A DNA stretch of 44,256 bases from Ignavibacteriaceae bacterium (GCA_046703345.1 JBJKTB010000389.1:1-44256), one strand, 5' to 3'. Positions 1 to 44,256 are shown, counted from the stretch's first letter. Notes: a model not told the origin generated them from the sequence alone. Program-made: numbers and translations.

Positions 1-173
1 GTCTCGCTTTTCTTCGCCATATCTTCATAAGCATTTACATCCGTACCGATTGCAATGCGGCTTTCATCGGTGACCAGATAAGGCTCGCCTTGCAGCAGGT
101 TGCTTGTGGAAGCCTGCGTATCCAGGTTTGCCTTTGTAGTCCGTAAAATTTGTATCGTTTGCCCGCGGCTCAT
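1..173 (-). CDS. Tail-fibre-like protein, N-terminal fragment (continues beyond the window edge)
   Basis: Partial ORF, not in the ORF track. The ATG at 171-173 overlaps the stop of the 152-aa gene (TAATG). It reads MSRGQTIQILRTTKANLDTQASTSNLLQGEPYLVTDESRIAIGTD... to the edge. The N-terminus is paralogous to that of the 152-aa protein (KANL...GE..VT(T)D motif of phage fibre N-terminal domains). Confidence 0.5.
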   Translation of the reverse strand, partial: MSRGQTIQILRTTKANLDTQASTSNLLQGEPYLVTDESRIAIGTDVNAYEDMAKKSE

Positions 174-631
174 TAGAACGTGCCGCCGTCGATTGTATTA
201 ACGTTTAAAGTTACAAAAGCATTGCCGGCATCTTTAGTCCACGCCATTGTGCTGCCCATCCTTAAAACGCCGTCCGTGCCGTCCGTGCCCCAAATGTAGC
301 CTGCAGTGCCGCCGCTTACTACCGCAACAAGCTCATCGGTGCTGGCAGCCGGAATATTTAGAGCACTCTTAAAGTCGTTAAAAGTCATCTTCTTTTCTTT
401 TTGTTCTGCAGCTTCGCTGGCATCATGGATAAGGATTAAATCTTCCGCACCGCTTACACTTGCAAGCGCGGTAAGATCGTCCAGCGCGGGTACAACCGGG
501 ATCATCGTTGTTGCATCGGTCGGTAAATGCAAGGTGCCGCGGTCGGTTGTAACATGCAGCTCGCCCGCGTTCAATGAAGTTGAAGGCAGATTAGCTTTCA
601 ATCCCCTTTTTGTTTTTATTATCTGAGCCAT
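173..631 (-). CDS. Tail-fibre / receptor-binding-like protein (152 aa)
   Basis: RBS aaatttAGGAGtagaaaATG. N-terminal IKTKRGLKANLPSTSLNAGELHVTTD motif resembles phage tail-fibre (Mtd-type) N-terminal domains. C-terminus ...IDGGTF is shared with the neighbouring 104-aa protein. Lies at the distal end of the structural operon. Confidence 0.6.
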   Translation of the reverse strand: MAQIIKTKRGLKANLPSTSLNAGELHVTTDRGTLHLPTDATTMIPVVPALDDLTALASVSGAEDLILIHDASEAAEQKEKKMTFNDFKSALNIPAASTDELVAVVSGGTAGYIWGTDGTDGVLRMGSTMAWTKDAGNAFVTLNVNTIDGGTF

Positions 632-667
632 TTTCTACTCCTAAATTTTATAATTAATTTTATTCCG

Positions 668-982
668 TTATTCAAAAGTTCCGCCGTCTAATGTTTTAGT
701 AAATTTATACCCTCTGTCCTGCGTGCTGTCAACCATTAAAAAATAATCGTTCGATCCGATGGGGAGCCTTACCGGCTGCGCGCTCGCATCTCCAACTATC
801 AGATCTCCTTTCGCATTAATCGTAGAAGCACGGACGTAATCCGTTATACTTCCTCCCGACGGCCCCTGCTCTCCTATTTCAATAACCTCAAGGTTGTCGT
901 TAACAACTTCAATAACTTCGGATTCGTCAAATTCGAATACCTCTGTTTCGTTTTCCGTTATTACTATAAAATCTTTATCCAT
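668..982 (-). CDS. Fibre-associated virion protein (104 aa), function unassigned
   Basis: Start overlaps the upstream stop (TAATG). Acidic N-terminus, GDLIVGD...PVRLPIGSNDYFLMVDS motif, C-terminal LDGGTFE. Role inferred from context only. Confidence 0.55.
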   Translation of the reverse strand: MDKDFIVITENETEVFEFDESEVIEVVNDNLEVIEIGEQGPSGGSITDYVRASTINAKGDLIVGDASAQPVRLPIGSNDYFLMVDSTQDRGYKFTKTLDGGTFE

Positions 983-1332
983 TATTTTTTCGGGTTCTTT
1001 GTAATTTCGCCTTTAATTCTCCGGATCGGCTCCGGAGTCGTATTTATAATATCGAACTCATAATCTGCGGTTACAAAATTCAAGTCGGTTATTTTTGCGG
1101 CCGAAATATTTACGGAATATTTACCGTCGGTTGTGCCTACGGTAATTTCGCCGCTAGAAGGCGTATAGGTTGCCAGAAGCTCGCCGTCGCTTTTGCGGAA
1201 TATTTTTAATGATGCCGAAAAGCCCGTTATGTTAACGGGCGTTCTGCTGCTTTCTGTGCCGGTCTTCCAGACGAATGAAAAGCCCCAGGCAATTCCGTCT
1301 TCTATTATAAAGTTCTTTTGGGCTGCATCCAT
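982..1332 (-). CDS. Hypothetical virion protein (116 aa)
   Basis: Tightly packed in the structural operon (TAAATG junction with the upstream gene). Beta-rich composition. No family recognised. Confidence 0.6.
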   Translation of the reverse strand: MDAAQKNFIIEDGIAWGFSFVWKTGTESSRTPVNITGFSASLKIFRKSDGELLATYTPSSGEITVGTTDGKYSVNISAAKITDLNFVTADYEFDIINTTPEPIRRIKGEITKNPKK

Positions 1333-1692
1333 TTATTTCCCCGCATTTGCTGCCTTTTGAAAATCTATTACGTTCGATCCGGCTTTCTTCTGGGAGATCT
1401 TGCCGGTTAACAGCACAAGTTTGCTCCCGCATTCGGTAAGCTCATACCGCTTGCCTATAATTTCATTGTTGCCGGTTACATCCATTTCGTAGCAGTCGCC
1501 GTTAATCTGCAGGCCGCCGGTTCGCGTGGAAACGAAAATTGTTTTGCCGCCGGCTACGCTGTAAATACGCAAAGACTTTGCCTTATTATCAATAATATAA
1601 GGCACTTTTAATTTGCTTTTAACGGCCTTTTTATCGCCGCTTGATATTTCATCCTCGATGAATATATCTACTTCTTTTTTTTCTTTAGCCAT
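1333..1692 (-). CDS. Hypothetical virion protein (119 aa)
   Basis: ORF with a weak GGAA RBS, directly downstream of the hairpin that follows the 317-aa gene. No family recognised. Confidence 0.6.
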   Translation of the reverse strand: MAKEKKEVDIFIEDEISSGDKKAVKSKLKVPYIIDNKAKSLRIYSVAGGKTIFVSTRTGGLQINGDCYEMDVTGNNEIIGKRYELTECGSKLVLLTGKISQKKAGSNVIDFQKAANAGK

Positions 1693-1716
1693 TTCGAAAT
1701 TCCTTATTTTATTTTA

Positions 1717-1742
1717 AGCCGAAGGCTCAAAGGCCTTCGGCT
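1717..1742 (-). terminator. GC hairpin after the 317-aa gene (possible terminator or mRNA-stabilising element, no U-tract)
   Basis: AGCCGAAGGC (1717-1726) pairs perfectly with GCCTTCGGCT (1733-1742) around a 6-nt loop. On the coding (minus) strand it is followed by TAAAATAAAAT, not a T-run. Confidence 0.4.
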
Positions 1743-1748
1743 GAATAA

Positions 1749-2702
1749 TTAATAACCGATGGTTACCGTACCGCCGTTTGCGCCGTCATCATCATCAACG
1801 CCGCCGTAAGAAGCGCCGGTCTGAACCGTAATTTCATACGGCCTTACCATGCCTTCGTATGTACATTTCAGATTCCTTTTGTCGTCGGAAAAAGTCGGCT
1901 CGTCAACAGGAGTTAAAGTGCCGGCGGTAAAGTCAAATTCATCGTAATAGCTGCCTTCGTTCGGTATCTGCAGCTTAACTGTTTGGCTCATGTTCTTACT
2001 CAGCTGCGTAACTATTTTTGATATTGAGGCGTCTTTGCCGGTTATTTCCAAATGGCAGAGGAAGCCGTCTATCATATTAGCGCCCAAAGCATTTTCGGAG
2101 TCGATTGATTTTATTGAGAACTTTAAGTCTTCAAACTCCGATGCCGATATTAAGCTTGTACCGCTGGGTGCCTGAATAAGAAGATCGTTAAGGTGCGCTC
2201 TTCTTGCCTGCGTAAAATCAACTCCGTCAACCGTAGCGCCGAGCGAGATCGCCGATTCGCTGTCTGCTGCGTCCAGCATTGTCTGAACGGTTGAATAATC
2301 CGCCGCACCGGTTAAGGTTTCTTTTATGGATCTTCCGTCGAGTGTCAGCAGATATTCAAACGCAAGGCCAAGCACGAATGTTGATGCTGTAAATTTGAAA
2401 ACATCTTCGCTGTTCGCGGTGGAAGACTGCTTATCGCTGAGCATCTGCACATCCATGTTGCAGTTCATGTGCCTTAATAAGCCGGAAAATACATCAAGGG
2501 ATGAGTGGAATGTTTCATATTCGGCTTTTGCCTGCAGCATGTTCCTGGCGGTCCTCTGCTTATAATCTTTCCGCGTTTTATACGGGGAAAAGGTCAAAGT
2601 CGCTTTATCTCGGAAGCCTGCCATTACAATCCCGGCGGGAGTTGTGGCCAGTGTTCCGAGGTTGCATTTACCAATTGCTTTTATTCCAGGTATTGAAATC
2701 AT
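1749..2702 (-). CDS. Hypothetical major structural protein (317 aa; possible major tail protein, positional guess)
   Basis: RBS AGAGGTaaacaaaATG. Largest ORF between the capsid and fibre genes, followed by a strong hairpin. No family recognised from the sequence. Confidence 0.55.
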   Translation of the reverse strand: MISIPGIKAIGKCNLGTLATTPAGIVMAGFRDKATLTFSPYKTRKDYKQRTARNMLQAKAEYETFHSSLDVFSGLLRHMNCNMDVQMLSDKQSSTANSEDVFKFTASTFVLGLAFEYLLTLDGRSIKETLTGAADYSTVQTMLDAADSESAISLGATVDGVDFTQARRAHLNDLLIQAPSGTSLISASEFEDLKFSIKSIDSENALGANMIDGFLCHLEITGKDASISKIVTQLSKNMSQTVKLQIPNEGSYYDEFDFTAGTLTPVDEPTFSDDKRNLKCTYEGMVRPYEITVQTGASYGGVDDDDGANGGTVTIGY

Positions 2703-2720
2703 TTTGTTTACCTCTAATTT

Positions 2721-3215
2721 TTATGTTCTTAAATCTTCTTCCGCATAATCCAGCGGCACACCGAATGTAACCGGGTATTTCCAAACTCCGTTTGCTTCTT
2801 CCGCTAATGACGAAGCAACAGGATAAATTTTATTTTCATAGCCGGGGCGTTTGTTAAATACTTCAATCCCGGCAACCGCACCAAGAACAAAGTCGACATA
2901 ATCCGCCGGTATCATTTTATAATGTTCAACAGAAATTCTCGGGCTGTCTATAAAACGGATTATGGGGACAACCGAAATGAGCATTTCTCTTTTCATAAAT
3001 ATTTTGTTGCCGCGGTAATCATCCCGCTTTGTAAAATTATCGCCCGCATATAAAAGTCCTATAACTCCCACCGGATCTTTAAGCACGTAGCCGTCAAGCT
3101 GCGTAAGCCTTTCGACGGCAACACGGTTTGCCTGGTCCAGCTCTTTTAATTTTTCGCTCAAAGCATCTTCAATAACCTTAAACGCTTCCGATATTTTTTC
3201 TATTGTATATTCCAT
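2721..3215 (-). CDS. Hypothetical neck / head-tail joining protein (164 aa; possibly Mu gp37/DUF1834-like)
   Basis: RBS AAGGAattATG. First gene after the terminator that closes the lysis cassette. The pattern ...LDGYVLKDPVGVIGLLYAGD... is reminiscent of DUF1834 but unverified. Confidence 0.45.
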   Translation of the reverse strand: MEYTIEKISEAFKVIEDALSEKLKELDQANRVAVERLTQLDGYVLKDPVGVIGLLYAGDNFTKRDDYRGNKIFMKREMLISVVPIIRFIDSPRISVEHYKMIPADYVDFVLGAVAGIEVFNKRPGYENKIYPVASSLAEEANGVWKYPVTFGVPLDYAEEDLRT

Positions 3216-3226
3216 AATTCCTTTAT

Positions 3227-3262
3227 AAAAAAGCCGGAGGCGAGGAATGAACCCCCGGCTTT
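3227..3262 (-). terminator. Rho-independent terminator after the lysis cassette
   Basis: On the minus strand: AAAGCCGGGGG-loop-CCTCCGGCTTT followed by TTTTAT (stem of about 11 bp with one mismatch, T-run of 6 counting the stem end). Confidence 0.75.
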
Positions 3263-3269
3263 GTGGGCG

Positions 3270-3686
3270 TTATTGACTGGGGACCTTTAATTTAAATACT
3301 TTAAGTACCGCCGAGATTACCGGCCAGCTTGCAAACCCGTTTGCCATTAGCGAGGACGCGAGCCCGTATATAAAGATGTAATACCATTCAAGCTCGGCAA
3401 ACATTCCCAGCTGAAAGAGCCATCCTAGTGCGCTTATAATAAATCCTATGATAACGCTTACCCAAATTGTAACGCCGTCTTTTGTACTATATTTCTTTTT
3501 TACCAATGAGGTTAATAAAATAACCGCTGTTGTAAGTCCGGCAAGAGTAACAAATACAATATCCAGATTAATCGGCTCGGGCGGTGCGGTGCCCGTCTGG
3601 GCAATTGCGGCAACGGGCAGTACCACTATAAACAAGAGAACGGTGAATAGTATTTTTACGGCTTTATTAAAGAGTAATCGTAACAT
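3270..3686 (-). CDS. Multi-pass membrane protein, holin candidate (138 aa)
   Basis: Hydrophobic N-terminal leader plus three further predicted TM segments (IVFVTLAGLTTAVILLTSLV, VTIWVSVIIGFIISALGWLF, YYIFIYGLASSLMANGFASW). Last gene of the lysis cassette. Confidence 0.55.
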   Translation of the reverse strand: MLRLLFNKAVKILFTVLLFIVVLPVAAIAQTGTAPPEPINLDIVFVTLAGLTTAVILLTSLVKKKYSTKDGVTIWVSVIIGFIISALGWLFQLGMFAELEWYYIFIYGLASSLMANGFASWPVISAVLKVFKLKVPSQ

Positions 3687-3687
3687 G

Positions 3688-4146
3688 TTACCTCCTAATA
3701 AATAAATAGATTATTAATGCGATAAGCATCCCGACAAACACAAGCCCGATCTTTGCAAGCATCGGCGTCTGGATTATGTCCGGGGGCTGAGTAATTTTTA
3801 ACGTGTCCCAGTAAACTATTGAGTCGGGTTTTATTTTAAGATAGAACTCGCCCATGCTTTCAATTTTATTGCCTAAACTTTTATTGTCTTTAATCAGCTG
3901 CTCAACTCTTGCTCTTAATGCGGAGTCCGGTATAAATTTTACAACCTGCACAGTGTCTTTGCCTTCAATCCGGGTTGCTATAAATAAAGTATCTATCCAA
4001 TGCGAGTCCATCGTATTTTCAATTGTCGGCGGCTTAATTATCTTTGGTTTAATTTCCACCGTCTCTTTAGCTCCGCTGCATCCGAATAAAAGCAGCAGCG
4101 CCAGCATTGCAATAATTATTTTTATAAAAATTTTTATCTTTCTCAT
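3688..4146 (-). CDS. Lipoprotein with C-terminal transmembrane anchor, unimolecular spanin (u-spanin) candidate (152 aa)
   Basis: N-terminal signal with lipobox LLLLFGC|SG. Extreme C-terminal TM IGLVFVGMLIALIIYLFIRR. Lies immediately downstream of the endolysin gene. This topology matches T1 gp11-type u-spanins. Confidence 0.55.
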   Translation of the reverse strand: MRKIKIFIKIIIAMLALLLLFGCSGAKETVEIKPKIIKPPTIENTMDSHWIDTLFIATRIEGKDTVQVVKFIPDSALRARVEQLIKDNKSLGNKIESMGEFYLKIKPDSIVYWDTLKITQPPDIIQTPMLAKIGLVFVGMLIALIIYLFIRR

Positions 4147-4150
4147 AGAT

Positions 4151-4702
4151 CTAATATTTTACCAGTGTAAAATTCGTTATCCGGAAATAGTTAGCCGGCT
4201 GTATACATCTATTCTTTAAATAAACTCCCTCGCCATTATCCTGGCTGCCGCGCTCGTTGCTGCTTGTATTCCCTTCAACTGTTTTGCCGCATTGCTCGCC
4301 CCAGCTTCTTACAAAACCAATGTGCCCGCTTATAGTTTGACCTTTACGCCAAACAACAATAGTTCCGGGCTTAATTTTTACTTTTCCTATTAGTACATCA
4401 TTTGCTTTAATTGAATTCTTTCTGATGAAGGATCTTGCAAGTCCGGAGCGGACAGCCGGCTGCTTAGCTTTTGCAGCGGTTAAACAGTAAGAAACAAATG
4501 CGGCGCACCACGAATCACCGCGCCTGCGTCCTACGCTGTGCAGAAACTTTTCAACTGCCGGTCCGTCGTTATGCCCCGTTAATTCCGTTGTGCCCGCATA
4601 ACTCATTGCCGTATCCAATGCAGGGCACGCCGCGGTATATTGGCTAAGAGCCGAGAATAGCGGCAGCAACGATAAGAGCAAGAGACAACATAAAAATCGC
4701 AT
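4151..4702 (-). CDS. Peptidoglycan hydrolase / endolysin, CHAP (NlpC/P60-like, TIGR02594-like) domain, with N-terminal signal sequence
   Basis: Catalytic-type motifs DSWCAAFVSYCL (Cys), GHIGFV (His) and EGNTS. N-terminal MRFLCCLLLLSLLPLFSALS looks like a signal or SAR segment. The long start overlaps the upstream ORF by 59 nt. An alternative start at 4606 (MSYAG...) would remove both the signal and the overlap. Confidence 0.75.
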   Translation of the reverse strand: MRFLCCLLLLSLLPLFSALSQYTAACPALDTAMSYAGTTELTGHNDGPAVEKFLHSVGRRRGDSWCAAFVSYCLTAAKAKQPAVRSGLARSFIRKNSIKANDVLIGKVKIKPGTIVVWRKGQTISGHIGFVRSWGEQCGKTVEGNTSSNERGSQDNGEGVYLKNRCIQPANYFRITNFTLVKY

Positions 4703-4925
4703 AAGCGATGTTTCCTTTTTTTAATTCTGTAATTGTATCAATCTCGCGCATTGCATAATTATCAAACGCCCAGAATAATATTATACCCAGCGCAGCCTTT
4801 GCAAGCTCAACGCCGAATGACGACAGCTGGATTGCAAATTCAAACGTTATAAACACAGTCAGTATGGAAAGTAAAAAAGTTGTTATAAATAATTTACCGT
4901 GTGCCGATGTTAAAAAGTTTTTCAT
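4644..4925 (-). CDS. Small three-TM membrane protein (93 aa, DUF350-like C-terminus), holin/antiholin candidate
   Basis: TM-rich. The C-terminal ELKKGNIAYAIFMLSLALIVAAAILG resembles the DUF350 motif. The start overlaps the stop of the gp36-like gene (TAATG). Lies immediately upstream of the endolysin. Confidence 0.55.
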   Translation of the reverse strand: MKNFLTSAHGKLFITTFLLSILTVFITFEFAIQLSSFGVELAKAALGIILFWAFDNYAMREIDTITELKKGNIAYAIFMLSLALIVAAAILGS

Positions 4926-5383
4926 TAATATTTATCCCATAAATCGCTGTTGAACATTCTGTCGCTTGATGTCTTATTAGTTTTAATTTCATTTGAAATT
5001 GACTGCGGCTCTGTTGAGATCCCGATGTCAATCAATCCCTTATTTATATCCGACAATAACTTTAATCCTTCTTTGCGGATTGATAATATTGAGTCCGGCA
5101 TATTCTCCATGCTGCGCCGCTCATAGCAGTGGTAAATTGTAAAGCTGTCGCTTAGGTTTGCAATTATTCCCGGTACGGAAGTAAGCGGAAGCGTATATCT
5201 CCCGCGCAGATTTGCGTCAATTTCCTGCTGTGCAACATCCGCTGCTTCATTAAATCGGACAACTATATTATCGCTGCTGTCCGTAAGATCTATTTCATTA
5301 TCATTTCTTACTTCATCGTTAAGCAGCTGGATCAATGTCTGCTGGTTAATTCTTTTTGATACGCTATCTATGGTTGAATACAT
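4925..5383 (-). CDS. Head-tail connector protein, Mu gp36 / DUF1320-like (152 aa)
   Basis: N-terminal pattern ...TLIQLLNDE...AADVAQQEIDANLRGRYTLPL...IY.CYERR matches the DUF1320 signature. Lies directly downstream of the major capsid gene, as in Mu-like phages. Confidence 0.7.
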   Translation of the reverse strand: MYSTIDSVSKRINQQTLIQLLNDEVRNDNEIDLTDSSDNIVVRFNEAADVAQQEIDANLRGRYTLPLTSVPGIIANLSDSFTIYHCYERRSMENMPDSILSIRKEGLKLLSDINKGLIDIGISTEPQSISNEIKTNKTSSDRMFNSDLWDKY

Positions 5384-5405
5384 TTAAACTCTTAATCTTC
5401 TTTAT

Positions 5406-5437
5406 AAAAATCCCCCTCTCATATTCCAGAGAGGAGG
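5406..5437 (-). terminator. Rho-independent terminator after the major capsid gene
   Basis: On the minus strand: CCTCCTCTC-tggaatat-GAGAGGGGG (9-bp stem including one G-U) followed by ATTTTTAT. Confidence 0.7.
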
Positions 5438-5460
5438 ACCAGGGAACAGGGGGAAACTAT

Positions 5461-6390
5461 TTAAGCAATTACCGTACTGAATAAGTAACCGAGATCGTTA
5501 GCCGTTATTTTCTCTTTACAAGATTCTCCGGCTTTAATGTAGGTGCCGCCTTTCAGTCCGGATTTAGGTTCGGGCATCTGTCCTGCTACTGGCGTTCCGA
5601 AGCGTGCGGTATATCCGAACGTCATTCCGCGGGTTGTGTTTGCCAAGGTGTTGCGGTAGATTAAAGCGCAGTAATTACCCCAGACACGTGCAAAGCTTGC
5701 GGTCTGTCCTTTTTTGGATGAATTAAGCCAGCCCTGGCCGACTAGTATTTCCTGCAGTTCTAAAAGTTCCGCAACCGCCTGGCGCGCAGCTACTCCGCTG
5801 TCGCCGGAATTTTTATTTGTAGCTTTAATAACTTTCGGGTGCCTGCGCAGCACAGTCCAAACCGAATTACCTAGGACCATTACGTTCGGGCGCATTATGC
5901 ATACATCCAACGCGGTAAGAATATCTTCAATCGGGTCGGAGTTTGTAAAGTCGCTCCACTTATCCGTGCCGCTTAGTGCGGATTTGTTTGCGGATGCAAA
6001 GCTGGAAGTATTAAAGACAAGATCGGCTACGCGTTTTTCTCTTGCCAAAAGATTAAGATCCTGGATTCCTTCAACTGCATTGCCTAACGGATCATAGTTC
6101 GGCGGCGCGTTGTCAATATCATCCTGCGGTACCAGATCGGATAAGCCGTAATCGACACAAGTATCCGTATCTTCGGTTGCGTTAAATTCAACCTGGTTCG
6201 GTGTGCCTTTACGGCCGATGTAGTTGTCCGGCAAAGTAAACCTTTCCGATTTTTCGTAAGACAAATATTTGAATTCTTTTTTACCGACCTGCACGTAAGG
6301 CAGAACCTGGTCGGCAATTAAAGCTTCGTTCCTGTAAGCGATCGCAATCGCCGTCAGTTCGGGGGTGATTGGGAATGGTGCTAGTCCCAT
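5461..6390 (-). CDS. Major capsid protein (HK97 fold, lambda gpE / phage major capsid protein E-like), 309 aa
   Basis: Position after the protease/scaffold and decoration genes. Pattern ...DKWSDFTNSDPIEDILTALD...PNVMVLGNSVWTVLRRHPKV... parallels the gpE-family core. RBS AGGAGaaaataacATG. Followed by an intrinsic terminator. Confidence 0.8.
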   Translation of the reverse strand: MGLAPFPITPELTAIAIAYRNEALIADQVLPYVQVGKKEFKYLSYEKSERFTLPDNYIGRKGTPNQVEFNATEDTDTCVDYGLSDLVPQDDIDNAPPNYDPLGNAVEGIQDLNLLAREKRVADLVFNTSSFASANKSALSGTDKWSDFTNSDPIEDILTALDVCIMRPNVMVLGNSVWTVLRRHPKVIKATNKNSGDSGVAARQAVAELLELQEILVGQGWLNSSKKGQTASFARVWGNYCALIYRNTLANTTRGMTFGYTARFGTPVAGQMPEPKSGLKGGTYIKAGESCKEKITANDLGYLFSTVIA

Positions 6391-6443
6391 GTTATTTTCT
6401 CCTAAATATTAATTAAAAATTTTTTCATAGAACATTTTTCCGG

Positions 6444-6466
6444 GTCCCTCTTTTATATAGAGGGAC
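6444..6466 (-). terminator. Hairpin after the decoration-protein gene (weak terminator candidate, no U-tract)
   Basis: GTCCCTC (6444-6450) pairs with GAGGGAC (6460-6466) around a 9-nt AT loop, in the intergenic gap between the decoration and capsid genes. Confidence 0.35.
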
Positions 6467-6481
6467 TCAGGAAAGATTAAA

Positions 6482-7522: not shown

Positions 7523-7554
7523 TTCTTTAGCCCTTCAAATAATTGTTAAAATTT

Positions 7555-8814: not shown

Positions 8815-8981
8815 TATAATGATTCCGCTCTTTCATTTATAAAATTTATAATTTGTTCTCTGTGATTTTTTAATTTGCCGTTGAGATTTTTATAAAATGT
8901 ATCAGTACAAATCCCCAAATGTCTTACAATTTGATTAATTGATATTCCGAATTCTTTTGCTTTGAATTTTGCATATGCCAT
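8814..8981 (-). CDS. Small helix-turn-helix DNA-binding protein (55 aa from the ATG; the ORF track extends it to a TTG at 9137)
   Basis: HTH-like segment FGISINQIVRHLGICTDTFYKNL. The stop overlaps the start of the protease gene (TAATG). The TTG-initiated 107-aa version starts inside a 33-bp palindrome and has no RBS, so the ATG at 8981 is preferred. The start remains uncertain. Confidence 0.5.
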   Translation of the reverse strand: MAYAKFKAKEFGISINQIVRHLGICTDTFYKNLNGKLKNHREQIINFINERAESL

Positions 8982-9114
8982 TTCACAATGGCATGGCGAG
9001 AGTGGAATCGCCCCATATTTAAGCCCTATAATTAGGGTATTATTTCTTATCAATTGGAATAATCTTTTCACATTCAATTCTATTTTTTGATTTTTAACAT
9101 AAAAAACCAATCCG

Positions 9115-9147: not shown

Positions 9148-9204
9148 ATAACTCATTCTTTATATTCCTTGCCAAATATTTTATATAAAAACAGCGGGCT
9201 TAAA

Positions 9205-35142: not shown

Positions 35143-35275
35143 CGGATTGGTTTTTTATGTTAAAAATCAAAAAATAGAATTGAATGTGAAAAGATTATTC
35201 CAATTGATAAGAAATAATACCCTAATTATAGGGCTTAAATATGGGGCGATTCCACTCTCGCCATGCCATTGTGAA

Positions 35276-35443
35276 ATGGCATATGCAAAATTCAAAGCAA
35301 AAGAATTCGGAATATCAATTAATCAAATTGTAAGACATTTGGGGATTTGTACTGATACATTTTATAAAAATCTCAACGGCAAATTAAAAAATCACAGAGA
35401 ACAAATTATAAATTTTATAAATGAAAGAGCGGAATCATTATAA
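35276..35443 (+). CDS. Small HTH DNA-binding protein (55 aa from the ATG), mirror copy
   Basis: Exact reverse complement of 8814..8981 (the track version starts at a TTG at 35120). Confidence 0.5.
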   Translation: MAYAKFKAKEFGISINQIVRHLGICTDTFYKNLNGKLKNHREQIINFINERAESL

Positions 35444-36702: not shown

Positions 36703-36734
36703 AAATTTTAACAATTATTTGAAGGGCTAAAGAA

Positions 36735-37775: not shown

Positions 37776-37790
37776 TTTAATCTTTCCTGA

Positions 37791-37813
37791 GTCCCTCTAT
37801 ATAAAAGAGGGAC
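37791..37813 (+). terminator. Hairpin GTCCCTC-loop-GAGGGAC, mirror copy
   Basis: Exact reverse complement of 6444..6466. Confidence 0.35.
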
Positions 37814-37866
37814 CCGGAAAAATGTTCTATGAAAAAATTTTTAATTAATATTTAGGAGAAAATAAC

Positions 37867-38796
37867 ATGGGACTAGCACCATTCCCAATCACCCCCGAAC
37901 TGACGGCGATTGCGATCGCTTACAGGAACGAAGCTTTAATTGCCGACCAGGTTCTGCCTTACGTGCAGGTCGGTAAAAAAGAATTCAAATATTTGTCTTA
38001 CGAAAAATCGGAAAGGTTTACTTTGCCGGACAACTACATCGGCCGTAAAGGCACACCGAACCAGGTTGAATTTAACGCAACCGAAGATACGGATACTTGT
38101 GTCGATTACGGCTTATCCGATCTGGTACCGCAGGATGATATTGACAACGCGCCGCCGAACTATGATCCGTTAGGCAATGCAGTTGAAGGAATCCAGGATC
38201 TTAATCTTTTGGCAAGAGAAAAACGCGTAGCCGATCTTGTCTTTAATACTTCCAGCTTTGCATCCGCAAACAAATCCGCACTAAGCGGCACGGATAAGTG
38301 GAGCGACTTTACAAACTCCGACCCGATTGAAGATATTCTTACCGCGTTGGATGTATGCATAATGCGCCCGAACGTAATGGTCCTAGGTAATTCGGTTTGG
38401 ACTGTGCTGCGCAGGCACCCGAAAGTTATTAAAGCTACAAATAAAAATTCCGGCGACAGCGGAGTAGCTGCGCGCCAGGCGGTTGCGGAACTTTTAGAAC
38501 TGCAGGAAATACTAGTCGGCCAGGGCTGGCTTAATTCATCCAAAAAAGGACAGACCGCAAGCTTTGCACGTGTCTGGGGTAATTACTGCGCTTTAATCTA
38601 CCGCAACACCTTGGCAAACACAACCCGCGGAATGACGTTCGGATATACCGCACGCTTCGGAACGCCAGTAGCAGGACAGATGCCCGAACCTAAATCCGGA
38701 CTGAAAGGCGGCACCTACATTAAAGCCGGAGAATCTTGTAAAGAGAAAATAACGGCTAACGATCTCGGTTACTTATTCAGTACGGTAATTGCTTAA
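37867..38796 (+). CDS. Major capsid protein (309 aa), mirror copy
   Basis: Exact reverse complement of 5461..6390; identical protein. Confidence 0.8.
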   Translation: MGLAPFPITPELTAIAIAYRNEALIADQVLPYVQVGKKEFKYLSYEKSERFTLPDNYIGRKGTPNQVEFNATEDTDTCVDYGLSDLVPQDDIDNAPPNYDPLGNAVEGIQDLNLLAREKRVADLVFNTSSFASANKSALSGTDKWSDFTNSDPIEDILTALDVCIMRPNVMVLGNSVWTVLRRHPKVIKATNKNSGDSGVAARQAVAELLELQEILVGQGWLNSSKKGQTASFARVWGNYCALIYRNTLANTTRGMTFGYTARFGTPVAGQMPEPKSGLKGGTYIKAGESCKEKITANDLGYLFSTVIA

Positions 38797-38819
38797 ATAG
38801 TTTCCCCCTGTTCCCTGGT

Positions 38820-38851
38820 CCTCCTCTCTGGAATATGAGAGGGGGATTTTT
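38820..38851 (+). terminator. Rho-independent terminator after the major capsid gene, mirror copy
   Basis: CCTCCTCTC-tggaatat-GAGAGGGGG followed by ATTTTTA; exact reverse complement of 5406..5437. Confidence 0.7.
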
Positions 38852-38873
38852 ATAAAGAAGATTAAGAGTTTAA

Positions 38874-39332
38874 ATGTATTCAACCATAGATAGCGTATCA
38901 AAAAGAATTAACCAGCAGACATTGATCCAGCTGCTTAACGATGAAGTAAGAAATGATAATGAAATAGATCTTACGGACAGCAGCGATAATATAGTTGTCC
39001 GATTTAATGAAGCAGCGGATGTTGCACAGCAGGAAATTGACGCAAATCTGCGCGGGAGATATACGCTTCCGCTTACTTCCGTACCGGGAATAATTGCAAA
39101 CCTAAGCGACAGCTTTACAATTTACCACTGCTATGAGCGGCGCAGCATGGAGAATATGCCGGACTCAATATTATCAATCCGCAAAGAAGGATTAAAGTTA
39201 TTGTCGGATATAAATAAGGGATTGATTGACATCGGGATCTCAACAGAGCCGCAGTCAATTTCAAATGAAATTAAAACTAATAAGACATCAAGCGACAGAA
39301 TGTTCAACAGCGATTTATGGGATAAATATTAA
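38874..39332 (+). CDS. Head-tail connector, Mu gp36 / DUF1320-like (152 aa), mirror copy
   Basis: Exact reverse complement of 4925..5383; identical protein. Confidence 0.7.
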   Translation: MYSTIDSVSKRINQQTLIQLLNDEVRNDNEIDLTDSSDNIVVRFNEAADVAQQEIDANLRGRYTLPLTSVPGIIANLSDSFTIYHCYERRSMENMPDSILSIRKEGLKLLSDINKGLIDIGISTEPQSISNEIKTNKTSSDRMFNSDLWDKY

Positions 39333-39613
39333 TGAAAAACTTTTTAACATCGGCACACGGTAAATTATTTATAACAACTTTTTTACTTTCCATACTGACT
39401 GTGTTTATAACGTTTGAATTTGCAATCCAGCTGTCGTCATTCGGCGTTGAGCTTGCAAAGGCTGCGCTGGGTATAATATTATTCTGGGCGTTTGATAATT
39501 ATGCAATGCGCGAGATTGATACAATTACAGAATTAAAAAAAGGAAACATCGCTTATGCGATTTTTATGTTGTCTCTTGCTCTTATCGTTGCTGCCGCTAT
39601 TCTCGGCTCTTAG
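39332..39613 (+). CDS. Small three-TM membrane protein (93 aa), holin/antiholin candidate, mirror copy
   Basis: Exact reverse complement of 4644..4925; identical protein. Confidence 0.55.
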   Translation: MKNFLTSAHGKLFITTFLLSILTVFITFEFAIQLSSFGVELAKAALGIILFWAFDNYAMREIDTITELKKGNIAYAIFMLSLALIVAAAILGS

Positions 39614-40106
39614 CCAATATACCGCGGCGTGCCCTGCATTGGATACGGCAATGAGTTATGCGGGCACAACGGAATTAACGGGGCATAACGACGGACCGGC
39701 AGTTGAAAAGTTTCTGCACAGCGTAGGACGCAGGCGCGGTGATTCGTGGTGCGCCGCATTTGTTTCTTACTGTTTAACCGCTGCAAAAGCTAAGCAGCCG
39801 GCTGTCCGCTCCGGACTTGCAAGATCCTTCATCAGAAAGAATTCAATTAAAGCAAATGATGTACTAATAGGAAAAGTAAAAATTAAGCCCGGAACTATTG
39901 TTGTTTGGCGTAAAGGTCAAACTATAAGCGGGCACATTGGTTTTGTAAGAAGCTGGGGCGAGCAATGCGGCAAAACAGTTGAAGGGAATACAAGCAGCAA
40001 CGAGCGCGGCAGCCAGGATAATGGCGAGGGAGTTTATTTAAAGAATAGATGTATACAGCCGGCTAACTATTTCCGGATAACGAATTTTACACTGGTAAAA
40101 TATTAG
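39555..40106 (+). CDS. CHAP-domain endolysin with signal sequence (183 aa), mirror copy
   Basis: Exact reverse complement of 4151..4702; identical protein. Confidence 0.75.
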   Translation: MRFLCCLLLLSLLPLFSALSQYTAACPALDTAMSYAGTTELTGHNDGPAVEKFLHSVGRRRGDSWCAAFVSYCLTAAKAKQPAVRSGLARSFIRKNSIKANDVLIGKVKIKPGTIVVWRKGQTISGHIGFVRSWGEQCGKTVEGNTSSNERGSQDNGEGVYLKNRCIQPANYFRITNFTLVKY

Positions 40107-40110
40107 ATCT

Positions 40111-40569
40111 ATGAGAAAGATAAAAATTTTTATAAAAATAATTATTGCAATGCTGGCGCTGCTGCTTTTATTCGGATGCAGCGGAGCTAAAGAGACGGTG
40201 GAAATTAAACCAAAGATAATTAAGCCGCCGACAATTGAAAATACGATGGACTCGCATTGGATAGATACTTTATTTATAGCAACCCGGATTGAAGGCAAAG
40301 ACACTGTGCAGGTTGTAAAATTTATACCGGACTCCGCATTAAGAGCAAGAGTTGAGCAGCTGATTAAAGACAATAAAAGTTTAGGCAATAAAATTGAAAG
40401 CATGGGCGAGTTCTATCTTAAAATAAAACCCGACTCAATAGTTTACTGGGACACGTTAAAAATTACTCAGCCCCCGGACATAATCCAGACGCCGATGCTT
40501 GCAAAGATCGGGCTTGTGTTTGTCGGGATGCTTATCGCATTAATAATCTATTTATTTATTAGGAGGTAA
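40111..40569 (+). CDS. Lipoprotein with C-terminal TM, u-spanin candidate (152 aa), mirror copy
   Basis: Exact reverse complement of 3688..4146; identical protein. Confidence 0.55.
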   Translation: MRKIKIFIKIIIAMLALLLLFGCSGAKETVEIKPKIIKPPTIENTMDSHWIDTLFIATRIEGKDTVQVVKFIPDSALRARVEQLIKDNKSLGNKIESMGEFYLKIKPDSIVYWDTLKITQPPDIIQTPMLAKIGLVFVGMLIALIIYLFIRR

Positions 40570-40570
40570 C

Positions 40571-40987
40571 ATGTTACGATTACTCTTTAATAAAGCCGTA
40601 AAAATACTATTCACCGTTCTCTTGTTTATAGTGGTACTGCCCGTTGCCGCAATTGCCCAGACGGGCACCGCACCGCCCGAGCCGATTAATCTGGATATTG
40701 TATTTGTTACTCTTGCCGGACTTACAACAGCGGTTATTTTATTAACCTCATTGGTAAAAAAGAAATATAGTACAAAAGACGGCGTTACAATTTGGGTAAG
40801 CGTTATCATAGGATTTATTATAAGCGCACTAGGATGGCTCTTTCAGCTGGGAATGTTTGCCGAGCTTGAATGGTATTACATCTTTATATACGGGCTCGCG
40901 TCCTCGCTAATGGCAAACGGGTTTGCAAGCTGGCCGGTAATCTCGGCGGTACTTAAAGTATTTAAATTAAAGGTCCCCAGTCAATAA
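40571..40987 (+). CDS. Multi-pass membrane protein, holin candidate (138 aa), mirror copy
   Basis: Exact reverse complement of 3270..3686; identical protein. Confidence 0.55.
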   Translation: MLRLLFNKAVKILFTVLLFIVVLPVAAIAQTGTAPPEPINLDIVFVTLAGLTTAVILLTSLVKKKYSTKDGVTIWVSVIIGFIISALGWLFQLGMFAELEWYYIFIYGLASSLMANGFASWPVISAVLKVFKLKVPSQ

Positions 40988-40994
40988 CGCCCAC

Positions 40995-41030
40995 AAAGCC
41001 GGGGGTTCATTCCTCGCCTCCGGCTTTTTT
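40995..41030 (+). terminator. Rho-independent terminator after the lysis cassette, mirror copy
   Basis: AAAGCCGGGGG-loop-CCTCCGGCTTTTTT; exact reverse complement of 3227..3262. Confidence 0.75.
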
Positions 41031-41041
41031 ATAAAGGAATT

Positions 41042-41536
41042 ATGGAATATACAATAGAAAAAATATCGGAAGCGTTTAAGGTTATTGAAGATGCTTTGAG
41101 CGAAAAATTAAAAGAGCTGGACCAGGCAAACCGTGTTGCCGTCGAAAGGCTTACGCAGCTTGACGGCTACGTGCTTAAAGATCCGGTGGGAGTTATAGGA
41201 CTTTTATATGCGGGCGATAATTTTACAAAGCGGGATGATTACCGCGGCAACAAAATATTTATGAAAAGAGAAATGCTCATTTCGGTTGTCCCCATAATCC
41301 GTTTTATAGACAGCCCGAGAATTTCTGTTGAACATTATAAAATGATACCGGCGGATTATGTCGACTTTGTTCTTGGTGCGGTTGCCGGGATTGAAGTATT
41401 TAACAAACGCCCCGGCTATGAAAATAAAATTTATCCTGTTGCTTCGTCATTAGCGGAAGAAGCAAACGGAGTTTGGAAATACCCGGTTACATTCGGTGTG
41501 CCGCTGGATTATGCGGAAGAAGATTTAAGAACATAA
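41042..41536 (+). CDS. Hypothetical neck protein (164 aa, possibly gp37/DUF1834-like), mirror copy
   Basis: Exact reverse complement of 2721..3215; identical protein. Confidence 0.45.
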   Translation: MEYTIEKISEAFKVIEDALSEKLKELDQANRVAVERLTQLDGYVLKDPVGVIGLLYAGDNFTKRDDYRGNKIFMKREMLISVVPIIRFIDSPRISVEHYKMIPADYVDFVLGAVAGIEVFNKRPGYENKIYPVASSLAEEANGVWKYPVTFGVPLDYAEEDLRT

Positions 41537-41554
41537 AAATTAGAGGTAAACAAA

Positions 41555-42508
41555 ATGATTTCAATACCTGGAATAAAAGCAATTGGTAAATGCAACCTCG
41601 GAACACTGGCCACAACTCCCGCCGGGATTGTAATGGCAGGCTTCCGAGATAAAGCGACTTTGACCTTTTCCCCGTATAAAACGCGGAAAGATTATAAGCA
41701 GAGGACCGCCAGGAACATGCTGCAGGCAAAAGCCGAATATGAAACATTCCACTCATCCCTTGATGTATTTTCCGGCTTATTAAGGCACATGAACTGCAAC
41801 ATGGATGTGCAGATGCTCAGCGATAAGCAGTCTTCCACCGCGAACAGCGAAGATGTTTTCAAATTTACAGCATCAACATTCGTGCTTGGCCTTGCGTTTG
41901 AATATCTGCTGACACTCGACGGAAGATCCATAAAAGAAACCTTAACCGGTGCGGCGGATTATTCAACCGTTCAGACAATGCTGGACGCAGCAGACAGCGA
42001 ATCGGCGATCTCGCTCGGCGCTACGGTTGACGGAGTTGATTTTACGCAGGCAAGAAGAGCGCACCTTAACGATCTTCTTATTCAGGCACCCAGCGGTACA
42101 AGCTTAATATCGGCATCGGAGTTTGAAGACTTAAAGTTCTCAATAAAATCAATCGACTCCGAAAATGCTTTGGGCGCTAATATGATAGACGGCTTCCTCT
42201 GCCATTTGGAAATAACCGGCAAAGACGCCTCAATATCAAAAATAGTTACGCAGCTGAGTAAGAACATGAGCCAAACAGTTAAGCTGCAGATACCGAACGA
42301 AGGCAGCTATTACGATGAATTTGACTTTACCGCCGGCACTTTAACTCCTGTTGACGAGCCGACTTTTTCCGACGACAAAAGGAATCTGAAATGTACATAC
42401 GAAGGCATGGTAAGGCCGTATGAAATTACGGTTCAGACCGGCGCTTCTTACGGCGGCGTTGATGATGATGACGGCGCAAACGGCGGTACGGTAACCATCG
42501 GTTATTAA
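41555..42508 (+). CDS. Hypothetical major structural protein (317 aa), mirror copy
   Basis: Exact reverse complement of 1749..2702; identical protein. Confidence 0.55.
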   Translation: MISIPGIKAIGKCNLGTLATTPAGIVMAGFRDKATLTFSPYKTRKDYKQRTARNMLQAKAEYETFHSSLDVFSGLLRHMNCNMDVQMLSDKQSSTANSEDVFKFTASTFVLGLAFEYLLTLDGRSIKETLTGAADYSTVQTMLDAADSESAISLGATVDGVDFTQARRAHLNDLLIQAPSGTSLISASEFEDLKFSIKSIDSENALGANMIDGFLCHLEITGKDASISKIVTQLSKNMSQTVKLQIPNEGSYYDEFDFTAGTLTPVDEPTFSDDKRNLKCTYEGMVRPYEITVQTGASYGGVDDDDGANGGTVTIGY

Positions 42509-42514
42509 TTATTC

Positions 42515-42540
42515 AGCCGAAGGCCTTTGAGCCTTCGGCT
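42515..42540 (+). terminator. GC hairpin AGCCGAAGGC-loop-GCCTTCGGCT, mirror copy
   Basis: Exact reverse complement of 1717..1742. Confidence 0.4.
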
Positions 42541-42564
42541 TAAAATAAAATAAGGAATTTCGAA

Positions 42565-42924
42565 ATGGCTAAAGAAAAAAAAGAAGTAGATATATTCATC
42601 GAGGATGAAATATCAAGCGGCGATAAAAAGGCCGTTAAAAGCAAATTAAAAGTGCCTTATATTATTGATAATAAGGCAAAGTCTTTGCGTATTTACAGCG
42701 TAGCCGGCGGCAAAACAATTTTCGTTTCCACGCGAACCGGCGGCCTGCAGATTAACGGCGACTGCTACGAAATGGATGTAACCGGCAACAATGAAATTAT
42801 AGGCAAGCGGTATGAGCTTACCGAATGCGGGAGCAAACTTGTGCTGTTAACCGGCAAGATCTCCCAGAAGAAAGCCGGATCGAACGTAATAGATTTTCAA
42901 AAGGCAGCAAATGCGGGGAAATAA
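42565..42924 (+). CDS. Hypothetical virion protein (119 aa), mirror copy
   Basis: Exact reverse complement of 1333..1692; identical protein. Confidence 0.6.
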   Translation: MAKEKKEVDIFIEDEISSGDKKAVKSKLKVPYIIDNKAKSLRIYSVAGGKTIFVSTRTGGLQINGDCYEMDVTGNNEIIGKRYELTECGSKLVLLTGKISQKKAGSNVIDFQKAANAGK

Positions 42925-43275
42925 ATGGATGCAGCCCAAAAGAACTTTATAATAGAAGACGGAATTGCCTGGGGCTTTTCATTCGTCTGGAAGACCGGCA
43001 CAGAAAGCAGCAGAACGCCCGTTAACATAACGGGCTTTTCGGCATCATTAAAAATATTCCGCAAAAGCGACGGCGAGCTTCTGGCAACCTATACGCCTTC
43101 TAGCGGCGAAATTACCGTAGGCACAACCGACGGTAAATATTCCGTAAATATTTCGGCCGCAAAAATAACCGACTTGAATTTTGTAACCGCAGATTATGAG
43201 TTCGATATTATAAATACGACTCCGGAGCCGATCCGGAGAATTAAAGGCGAAATTACAAAGAACCCGAAAAAATAA
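42925..43275 (+). CDS. Hypothetical virion protein (116 aa), mirror copy
   Basis: Exact reverse complement of 982..1332; identical protein. Confidence 0.6.
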   Translation: MDAAQKNFIIEDGIAWGFSFVWKTGTESSRTPVNITGFSASLKIFRKSDGELLATYTPSSGEITVGTTDGKYSVNISAAKITDLNFVTADYEFDIINTTPEPIRRIKGEITKNPKK

Positions 43276-43589
43276 TGGATAAAGATTTTATAGTAATAAC
43301 GGAAAACGAAACAGAGGTATTCGAATTTGACGAATCCGAAGTTATTGAAGTTGTTAACGACAACCTTGAGGTTATTGAAATAGGAGAGCAGGGGCCGTCG
43401 GGAGGAAGTATAACGGATTACGTCCGTGCTTCTACGATTAATGCGAAAGGAGATCTGATAGTTGGAGATGCGAGCGCGCAGCCGGTAAGGCTCCCCATCG
43501 GATCGAACGATTATTTTTTAATGGTTGACAGCACGCAGGACAGAGGGTATAAATTTACTAAAACATTAGACGGCGGAACTTTTGAATAA
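43275..43589 (+). CDS. Fibre-associated virion protein (104 aa), mirror copy
   Basis: Exact reverse complement of 668..982; identical protein. Confidence 0.55.
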   Translation: MDKDFIVITENETEVFEFDESEVIEVVNDNLEVIEIGEQGPSGGSITDYVRASTINAKGDLIVGDASAQPVRLPIGSNDYFLMVDSTQDRGYKFTKTLDGGTFE

Positions 43590-43625
43590 CGGAATAAAAT
43601 TAATTATAAAATTTAGGAGTAGAAA

Positions 43626-44084
43626 ATGGCTCAGATAATAAAAACAAAAAGGGGATTGAAAGCTAATCTGCCTTCAACTTCATTGAACGCGGGCGAGCTG
43701 CATGTTACAACCGACCGCGGCACCTTGCATTTACCGACCGATGCAACAACGATGATCCCGGTTGTACCCGCGCTGGACGATCTTACCGCGCTTGCAAGTG
43801 TAAGCGGTGCGGAAGATTTAATCCTTATCCATGATGCCAGCGAAGCTGCAGAACAAAAAGAAAAGAAGATGACTTTTAACGACTTTAAGAGTGCTCTAAA
43901 TATTCCGGCTGCCAGCACCGATGAGCTTGTTGCGGTAGTAAGCGGCGGCACTGCAGGCTACATTTGGGGCACGGACGGCACGGACGGCGTTTTAAGGATG
44001 GGCAGCACAATGGCGTGGACTAAAGATGCCGGCAATGCTTTTGTAACTTTAAACGTTAATACAATCGACGGCGGCACGTTCTAA
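43626..44084 (+). CDS. Tail-fibre / receptor-binding-like protein (152 aa), mirror copy
   Basis: Exact reverse complement of 173..631; identical protein. Confidence 0.6.
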   Translation: MAQIIKTKRGLKANLPSTSLNAGELHVTTDRGTLHLPTDATTMIPVVPALDDLTALASVSGAEDLILIHDASEAAEQKEKKMTFNDFKSALNIPAASTDELVAVVSGGTAGYIWGTDGTDGVLRMGSTMAWTKDAGNAFVTLNVNTIDGGTF

Positions 44085-44256
44085 TGAGCCGCGGGCAAAC
44101 GATACAAATTTTACGGACTACAAAGGCAAACCTGGATACGCAGGCTTCCACAAGCAACCTGCTGCAAGGCGAGCCTTATCTGGTCACCGATGAAAGCCGC
44201 ATTGCAATCGGTACGGATGTAAATGCTTATGAAGATATGGCGAAGAAAAGCGAGAC
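44084..44256 (+). CDS. Tail-fibre-like protein, N-terminal fragment running off the window edge, mirror copy
   Basis: ATG at 44084-44086 overlaps the TAA of the 152-aa gene. Reads MSRGQTIQILRTTKANLDTQ... to the edge. Confidence 0.5.
   Translation, partial: MSRGQTIQILRTTKANLDTQASTSNLLQGEPYLVTDESRIAIGTDVNAYEDMAKKSE

Follow-up and report, generated by a model that had tools for sequence, protein, structure and literature searches.

A 44-kb palindromic contig carrying part of a Mu-like phage genome twice, very probably a product of sequencing and assembly

Contigs that are palindromic over their whole length constitute a documented class of artefact (PMC9528984, PMC9455707). Investigations on assembly graphs revealed that a k-mer with a self-complementary (k-1)-suffix gives rise to an inverted loop and to a maximal unitig that is palindromic, and that SPAdes and MEGAHIT output such unitigs in full (Rahman and Medvedev 2022, PMC9528984). 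In SPAdes assemblies of M. bovis, 81 whole-contig palindromes were found and put down to assembly error by the authors (PMC9455707). Fold-backs also occur at the level of single reads. Palindromes were present in 45.8% of long reads obtained with whole-genome amplification (WGA) versus 0.5% of those obtained without it, and missing SMRTbell adaptors likewise give palindromic reads (Pacasus, PMC6218980). Fold-back reads have been found in both ONT and PacBio libraries (Breakinator, PMC12870357).

The window analyzed here, a stretch of 44,256 nt, is one entire contig, as its MuB-like protein is on record from a single 44,256-nt contig. It shares with the palindromic unitigs and contigs an exact, even-sized and loop-free palindrome over the whole contig, inverted gene duplicates, and ends at the same base, and it differs from them in length, as 44 kb is far longer than the cases described there (PMC9528984; PMC9455707). 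The initial annotation had proposed a perfect palindrome turning between 22128 and 22129, and full comparison of the window with its own reverse complement bore out both points, giving 0 mismatches over all 44,256 positions and placing the axis there without a central loop. The base counts are balanced accordingly (A=T=12,956; G=C=9,172), the 60 terminal nt at the 3' end are the reverse complement of the initial 60 nt, and the window begins and ends at one and the same base of the 22,128-bp unit. At the fold-back junction (22121..22136), GGAGGGCA abuts TGCCCTCC, and the CATG at the axis is self-complementary in its own right. Every ORF was also said to have a twin on the opposite strand with coordinates summing to 44257, which the mirrored ORF coordinates confirm; for example, 20699-21664 (+) pairs with 22593-23558 (-), and 21661-21963 (+) with 22294-22596 (-). 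Arm A (1..22128, +) is therefore the sole unique sequence, and arm B (22129..44256, -) is its exact reverse complement, in which the twin of a gene at x lies at 44257-x, and adds no information. Because the longest loop-free perfect palindrome within the 22,128-bp arm is only 14 nt, chance is ruled out as the origin of the whole-window palindrome. Exact symmetry by itself does not discriminate between an artefact and a real inverted dimer, because replication of a hairpin-capped fragment would likewise give identical arms and ends, and a graph assembler would output such a dimer in the same form.

A Mu-like transposable phage of Ignavibacteriota-type hosts is the source of the 22,128-bp arm, which represents an internal fragment of its genome. 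The arm encodes a Mu-type DDE transposase of 673 aa (MuA-like; 18227..20248, +), which matches Mu-transpos_C (1.9e-10) and, under Pfam's cut-off, rve (2e-4), and a MuB-like AAA+ transposition ATPase of 321 aa (20699..21664, +; AAA_22, 1.5e-19), homologues of which carry the name "DNA transposition AAA+ family ATPase". The head module contains a terminase large subunit (10552-11916, +), a Mu-type portal (11957-13717, +; Portal_Mu, 2.7e-70), a MuF-like protein (13714-14469, +; Phage_Mu_F, 9.7e-20) and a gpG-like virion morphogenesis protein (14466-15071, +; Phage_tail_S, 1.6e-15). As in phage Mu and Mu-like phages, the unit thus combines the Mu-type transposase C-terminal domain and the MuB-like ATPase with a Mu portal, MuF and gpG, and its relatives additionally contain Gam and GemA. 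A leftward late operon (173..9137, -) comprises a probable protease/scaffold gene (7555-8814, -), assigned by position only and without a family match, a scaffold-like gene (6482-7522, -), the major capsid gene (5461-6390, -), a head-tail adaptor (4925-5383, -) and a CHAP endolysin (4151-4702, -), together with membrane proteins and tail and tail-fibre genes. The regulatory region (15953..17279) consists of a repressor-like gene (15953-16306, -), likewise assigned by position without a family match, a Ner-like gene (16410-16616, +) and a CII/CP76-like gene (16656-17279, +). The comparison with Pfam covered 30 predicted proteins, some of the others were compared with PHROGs only, and the two scans together took in all but a few small ORFs.

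The axis had been placed inside a gene, 40 nt into a new one. It does lie inside a gene, but within the final codons of a short conserved early gene (21954..22128, +; twin 22129-22303, -), not at the start of a new one. This gene has 58 codons in the window, while its homologues measure 57-64 aa, and it shows 55% identity to the homologue in the closest relative, locus L001, and 52% identity (E 5e-18) to that in L010. When it is read across the axis, it acquires a 22-residue tail, MPSFFNSLSISFFISGQTHQ, which results from translation of the gene's own reverse complement and for which the relatives have no counterpart. The stretch AAGAAGGAGG (22110..22125, +) contains an AAGGAGG motif that is kept in L001, where it stands 5 nt upstream of the ATG of the next gene, and the axis follows this motif by 3 nt. 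Judging from its position, AAGGAGG is likely the ribosome-binding site of that next gene, which is absent from the window. The axis thus breaks the gene order conserved among relatives, inside an early operon that continues in the related loci. At the outer end, a tail-fibre-like ORF (MSRGQTIQILRTTKANLDTQ...; 1..173, -; twin 44084-44256, +) is cut off at position 1 with 57 codons present, so that the unit is truncated at this end as well; its neighbour (173-631) encodes an Mtd_N domain.

Comparison with related loci indicates how much is missing. In 28 loci, representing approximately 20 distinct phages, the genome runs on beyond the point homologous to the axis into further early genes, with Gam and/or GemA encoded on the strand of the MuB-like gene, 2-3.5 kb downstream of it. 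No significant match to Gam, GemA or the intervening early genes of the relatives was obtained in the window. As related viral contigs measure 39.7, 40.6 and 41.7 kb, the arm corresponds to approximately 55% of a genome; the window therefore contains, in two copies, the gene content of approximately 55% of the expected 40-42 kb, and it lacks the distal tail genes along with Gam and GemA. On this sequence comparison, the 22-kb unit is truncated at both ends relative to its relatives. The early warning that only 22.1 kb is unique and that size and completeness are doubled is accordingly upheld by the exact arms and by the gene content. A search for a fold-back in 131 related loci found none, and inverted repeats of at least 100 nt were absent from the same loci except for one unrelated 126-nt repeat with 85% identity. 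At the junction homologous to the axis, no palindrome of at least 10 nt is present in L001, L003, L007 or L010.

The palindrome is thus very probably a product of sequencing and assembly and no form of the phage genome, a conclusion that we infer rather than observe. The initial annotation had likewise preferred a fold-back artefact to a real genome form, and this preference is supported, albeit indirectly, by the truncation of the unit, the broken gene order, the lack of any fold-back in the relatives and a simulation of the assembly graph. For the simulation, de Bruijn graphs were built on the real arm with k = 31, 55 and 127. When the arm was combined with a few fold-back reads and the true continuation was left out, the graph gave a unitig that was a perfect palindrome with double the length of the arm, reproducing on this arm the behaviour of the palindromic contigs mentioned above; it measured 44,258 nt owing to one chance-shared flank base per end, and it terminated on both sides in one and the same branch. 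Inclusion of the true continuation made the unitig end at the axis, and without fold-back reads a 22-kb contig resulted.

A sequence of events leading to the window can be proposed on this basis. The sampled DNA would have contained a Mu-like phage of roughly 40 kb, and the read set would have covered one 22.1-kb stretch of it together with some reads or k-mers that link the end of this stretch to the reverse complement of the stretch itself. The true continuation, comprising the following early genes, Gam, GemA and others, would have been represented scarcely or not at all. Since a sequence and its reverse complement are one node in the assembly graph, the fold-back junction would act as an inverted loop. 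The graph walk would proceed along the arm, turn at the axis and return over the same nodes in the opposite orientation, halting at exactly the branch or dead end from which it started. Such a walk over shared nodes would yield two arms that differ at no position, join without a loop and terminate at one and the same base. The specific graph event is inferred. The junction reads most likely derive from in vitro fold-back chimeras, which may have arisen either from strand switches of a displacing polymerase in whole-genome amplification or from fold-back ligation or extension at a DNA fragment end during library preparation. Such reads would be needed because a natural palindrome of at least k-1 nt is unlikely, given the four relatives and the 14-nt maximum of the arm. 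WGA chimeras and long-read fold-backs resemble the window in that a fragment and its own complement are joined head-to-head, the genomic position of the join being arbitrary (PMC6218980; PMC12870357), and they could plausibly have supplied the junction k-mers, which would also explain the missing continuation. Raw fold-back reads, in contrast, contain sequencing errors and often unequal arms; the exactly equal, error-free arms of the window therefore indicate an added graph or consensus step.

Within the same class of artefact, a less probable but still credible version is that the junction stems from one or a few fold-back long reads that were retained and polished by a long-read assembler. 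The source could be nanopore template-complement read-through, a PacBio molecule minus one adaptor, or an amplified palindromic molecule, and the axis would be the physical end of a DNA fragment of roughly 22 kb, which would be plausible as a long-read insert size. The documented fold-back reads of both platforms, including those from missing SMRTbell adaptors, are in keeping with this version, and one relative lies on a Flye-style contig (contig_98177), which indicates that long-read metagenomes are represented in the same databases. If the two arms of a long read had been called independently, however, zero differences across 22,128 nt and ends falling on exactly one base would be unusual, whereas the simulation indicates that exact arms and ends are the natural outcome of a graph walk over shared nodes; moreover, such reads are screened for by long-read assemblers.

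An error of the graph without any chimeric molecule appears improbable. A real short palindrome of at least k-1 nt, with loss of coverage of the continuation, would leave a lonely inverted loop to be traversed, exactly as predicted by PMC9528984. Loop-free palindromes of 22-34 nt do exist in related loci (approximately 8 in 1.23 Mb), and the self-complementary CATG would suit such an origin. The four relatives lacking a palindrome at the homologous junction and the 14-nt maximum in the arm argue against it, as does the consideration that a palindrome of at least 20 nt would overwrite both the end of the conserved gene and the region in which its downstream neighbour starts. A typical final k of 55-141 would demand a far longer natural palindrome.

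Still less probable, and indeed very unlikely, is an in vivo head-to-head inverted dimer of 2 x 22 kb, a "snap-back" defective genome formed when broken replicating phage DNA was hairpin-capped and then replicated, the molecule being plentiful enough in the sample for assembly. The mechanism is known in bacteria, as hairpin-capped ends and inverted chromosome duplications were described in E. coli (Darmon et al. 2010, PMC3315005), and its product would be a perfect inverted dimer centered on the break. The identical arms and symmetric ends of the window would be expected of such a molecule too. However, detection in E. coli was limited to sbcDC recA mutants, lacking SbcCD and RecA, and to a pre-existing 85- or 246-bp palindrome (PMC3315005), whereas palindromes of at least 10 nt are absent from the homologous site of the four relatives, and nothing similar recurs in the 131 related loci. 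The molecule would also be devoid of Gam, GemA, all downstream functions and part of the tail module, and its outer ends are located within a tail-fibre-like gene and coincide with neither a phage end nor a packaging site. At 44.3 kb in total, the window is close in length to related contigs; its reading as a packaged headful, suggested by the 43.8-kb contig of one relative, is not favoured, the agreement being regarded as coincidence. To our knowledge, an inverted-dimer genome form is undescribed for any transposable phage; an in vivo dimer, if true, would represent a new kind of defective genome for these phages.

A hairpin-ended linear replicon or head-to-head replicative dimer of an N15-type phage-plasmid, with the axis as telomere-resolution site, has a formal resemblance in its favour, since an unresolved telomere junction (N15, poxviruses) is a perfect palindrome without a loop, but it is extremely improbable and, as far as synteny can tell, already contradicted: no protelomerase or telomere resolvase was matched among 30 predicted proteins compared with Pfam in an arm holding approximately 55% of a genome, the axis interrupts conserved gene order that relatives continue to Gam and GemA, so that the center of the palindrome is not a genome terminus, and the relatives are integrated in chromosomes beside host genes, their Mu-type transposase and MuB denoting a different lifestyle.

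With an assembly product as the preferred reading, the main value of the window lies in quality control. CheckV calls inverted terminal repeats (ITRs) from at least 20 bp at both contig ends, and only 33.2% of ITR contigs reached high quality (PMC8116208). The ends of the window are mutually reverse-complementary over at least 20 bp and the rule would fire trivially; in contrast to ITR-complete contigs, however, the "ITR" is the entire half-contig, and the gene content is approximately 55% of a genome, twice. The concern that the window might be falsely reported as a complete linear genome was therefore justified, and that status was rejected here, as the gene content falls short of one full genome. 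It would pass ITR and length-based completeness tests as a complete linear phage of approximately 44 kb. If uncorrected, the palindrome doubles all gene counts and may seed false ideas of hairpin-ended or palindromic phage genomes. The remedy is to split the contig at 22128, retain one arm and label it as a genome fragment truncated at both ends.

The retained arm adds a new, modestly useful representative to an uncultivated group of Mu-like phages in Ignavibacteriota-type bacteria. The unit has no nucleotide match to deposited phages and its best annotated transposase match shows 27% identity, so it differs from known Mu-like phages in being only distantly related to them. Several diverged relatives adjoin the same host genes, a LexA-like trio followed by uppS and bamA. 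The gene order also differs from that of Mu, as the terminase-portal-F-G block has the repressor, transposase and early operon on its right, and this side of the unit reads toward the right prophage end.

The window and its reverse complement agree at 44,256 of 44,256 positions, with A = T = 12,956 and G = C = 9,172, and full self-alignment on the opposite strand gives a single 44,256-nt match at 100%. The sequence at the centre reads GGAGGGCA to the left and TGCCCTCC to the right of the axis, which lies between 22128 and 22129. The initial annotation, which described a whole-window palindrome whose ORFs have mirrored twins, is borne out on both points, as the paired ORF coordinates sum to 44257. 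Chance is ruled out as the source, because the longest perfect palindrome without a loop inside the arm (the unique half, 1-22128) is 14 nt. The MuB-like protein of the window is on record in exactly one contig, of 44,256 nt; therefore, the window is the entire contig, and both termini are contig ends.

The arm encodes a tail-fibre-like protein with an Mtd_N domain (173-631), a CHAP endolysin (4151-4702), a head-tail adaptor (4925-5383), the major capsid protein (5461-6390), the terminase large subunit (10552-11916), a Mu-type portal (11957-13717; 2.7e-70), a MuF-like protein (13714-14469), a gpG-like protein (14466-15071), a Mu-type transposase (18227-20248; Mu-transpos_C, 1.9e-10) and a MuB-like AAA+ ATPase (20699-21664). 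Because megablast of the arm found no nucleotide match in deposited phage genomes, where the best annotated transposase match is only 27% identical, the arm is a piece of an uncultivated Mu-like phage. Neither a tRNA nor an Rfam scan of it gave a match. Single-protein scans of viral and genome collections for related loci found no relatives, which were subsequently obtained via an alignment-based query. The closest relatives, whose MuB-like proteins are 58-71% identical to that of the window, belong to Ignavibacteriota-type genomes and metagenome-assembled genomes, among them Melioribacter isolates and bins of Ignavibacterium and Ignavibacteriaceae; some bins are labelled "Bacteroidetes bacterium".

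The gene order of this phage group differs from that of Mu. In the arm and in the relatives L005, L007 and L008, two operons diverge at about 9150 in window coordinates: one with capsid, lysis and tail genes runs leftward, and one with terminase-portal-F-G runs rightward. Beyond gpG, on its right side, follow the repressor and the early operon (Ner-like, transposase, MuB-like, Gam, GemA), which read toward the right prophage end; therefore, the transposase of this group is located mid-genome instead of at the left end. The terminase-portal-F-G block beside the repressor was also considered as a phage end-to-end junction within the arm, and this was rejected, since the identical order in relatives integrated in large chromosomal contigs indicates that it is native. 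A scaffold-like or decoration-like protein is encoded by the minus-strand ORF 6482-7522, in which a 141-nt unit occurs twice (6798-6938 and 6951-7091, 153 nt apart, 82% identical), corresponding to a duplicated peptide module (…LSIGTSGSEVEVTATPAELN…).

Both ends of the unit are truncated. Comparison was made with 28 related loci from about 20 distinct phages, in which several small genes come after the MuB-like gene on the same strand, with Gam and/or GemA 2-3.5 kb downstream of it; the window contains no significant match to Gam, GemA or the genes between. The ORF at the axis (21954-22128) has homologues of 57-64 aa at the equivalent position in relatives, with 55% identity to the protein of L001 and 52% to that of L010 (E 5e-18). 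Alignments to these two place the axis within the final 0-5 codons of the gene. The 22-residue "tail" across the axis is the translated reverse complement of the same gene and has no counterpart in the relatives. At the DNA level, L001 reads AAGGAGG-AAGCA-ATG, in which ATG is the start of the next gene, and the window reads AAGGAGG-GCA up to the axis and then turns back. Exact scans of viral and metagenome contigs with the 40 nt and the 25 nt just left of the axis recovered no contig with the native continuation. By homology, this continuation would be expected to have an ATG within about 15 nt, opening a gene of 86-103 aa, and a Gam homologue about 1-2 kb beyond. At the outer end, the tail-fibre-like ORF exits at position 1 after 57 codons. 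The minus-strand stretch 1-631 holds two neighbouring genes with an identical tail-fibre N-terminal motif (Mtd_N type: KANL…GE…TD), and the contig ends inside the second. Variable receptor-binding genes are common break points of metagenome assemblies, and such a break may account for the outer end. The two cut ORFs, joined into one protein query for overlapping neighbour contigs from the same sample, gave no match; this is weak negative evidence, since short partial ORFs are rarely on record. As related viral contigs measure 39.7, 40.6 and 41.7 kb and that of L005 43.8 kb, the arm represents about 55% of a genome, and the doubled contig mimics a full-length genome by happenstance.

Among 131 related loci compared with themselves on the opposite strand, the sole inverted repeat of at least 100 nt is an unrelated 126-nt repeat of 85% identity; the fold-back is not a property of these phages. 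Regarding its origin, a sequence and its own reverse complement are one object in assembly graphs. A k-mer with a self-complementary (k-1)-suffix gives rise to an "inverted loop" and to a maximal unitig that is palindromic, and such palindromes are printed whole by SPAdes and MEGAHIT (Rahman and Medvedev, PMC9528984). SPAdes assemblies of M. bovis contained 81 whole-contig palindromes, which were put down to assembly error (PMC9455707); the present contig almost certainly belongs to this documented artefact class. Assembly was simulated on the real arm with k = 31, 55 and 127. When reads of the arm were combined with one 280-nt fold-back fragment and continuation reads were absent, a perfect palindromic unitig of twice the arm length was obtained, both ends of which lie at one and the same branch. 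With reads of the true continuation added, the unitig ended at the axis, and without fold-back reads a plain 22-kb contig resulted. Because the simulation yields them, zero divergence, the absent loop and base-exact termini are the expected products of a graph walk and are uninformative on biology. The preference of the initial annotation for a fold-back artefact is thus supported by the truncated unit, the relatives and the simulation, and only two things are left to explain, namely the origin of the junction k-mers and the missing true continuation.

The most probable source of the junction k-mers is fold-back chimeric molecules, which would have formed in vitro at a fragment end; they may be amplification chimeras, library fold-backs or long-read fold-backs. 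Palindromes were found in 45.8% of long reads after whole-genome amplification versus 0.5% without it, and reads also become palindromic when SMRTbell adaptors are missing (PMC6218980); fold-back reads are found in unamplified ONT and PacBio libraries as well (PMC12870357). The CATG at the axis is self-complementary and could have served as the microhomology that primed a strand switch. A natural short palindrome of k-1 nt or more at the axis, combined with a coverage gap, is an unlikely alternative source; no palindrome of at least 10 nt is present at the homologous gene junction of L001, L003, L007 and L010. A real inverted dimer, produced in vivo by replication of a hairpin-capped break, would likewise be expected to have identical arms and symmetric ends, and such inverted duplications exist in E. 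coli, but their detection was limited to sbcDC recA mutants and to a palindrome of 85 or 246 bp that was already present (PMC3315005). In the present case, the homologous site of the relatives has no pre-existing palindrome, essential early and tail functions would be lost, the outer ends lie inside a tail-fibre-like gene instead of at a phage end, and there is no recurrence among relatives, which together make a real dimer very improbable. A hairpin-telomere replicon was rejected, as a Pfam scan of 30 predicted proteins gave no match to a telomere resolvase and the axis is embedded in conserved synteny; the relatives are integrated in chromosomal contigs, adjoining host genes, which fits a transposable prophage and not a hairpin-ended linear replicon. 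Mu-type replicative or self-transposition was rejected because Mu transposition links a phage end with a target site, and x cannot be connected to x on the opposite strand in this way.

The warning that a terminal-repeat test would falsely report a complete linear genome was justified: a CheckV-type call of inverted terminal repeats takes at least 20 bp at both contig ends (PMC8116208), which the window has. As its doubled length also matches the expected genome size, the contig could pass as complete. The remedy is to cut at 22128 and keep one arm, as a fragment with both ends truncated.

In diverged relatives, whose MuB-like proteins are 43-71% identical to that of the window, the early region is followed by a trio comprising a LexA-like S24 peptidase and proteins of about 80 aa and about 115-144 aa (L001 16509-20957; L007 19215-20954; L008 18579-20930; L122 17492-20923; L115 and L116 at about 15.7-17 kb). 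The host genes uppS and bamA come next in at least four different phages, and the divergence of these flanks (LexA-like 55-59%, UppS 60% identical) matches that of the phage genes; Melioribacter isolates have the trio and lack uppS. Such shared flanks are unexpected, because a Mu-type element should insert nearly at random, and they suggest a preference for this site, an old prophage passed on vertically or a trio that belongs to the right end of the phage. The closest relative of the window's early region, L001 at about 3000-17900 (also L002 and L113), encodes transposase, MuB-like, Gam and GemA, with no portal or gpG within 10 kb and with Type IV CRISPR (Csf3) and PAPS-reductase genes to its left; it resembles an "early-region-only" Mu-like element of roughly 13 kb or a prophage remnant. 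In L005 (contig_98177), the opposite strand just past the early region (17317-20832) encodes a methyltransferase/restriction-like protein and a nuclease of the OLD family, which could be defence cargo or flanking host DNA.

The non-coding stretch 15507-15677 (twin 28580-28750), which separates a lipoprotein-like ORF from the repressor-like gene, is 76.6% identical to L001 4456-4624 and is better conserved than the neighbouring coding DNA, which is about 67% identical. No Rfam family matches this stretch. On the plus strand, 15595-15677 has a predicted Y-shaped fold closed by CGGAACCG...CGGUUCCG and followed by U8 (-44.8 kcal/mol, z = -3.65, with 0 of 200 shuffles equally stable), and the region is a candidate phage small RNA on the comparison of two sequences.
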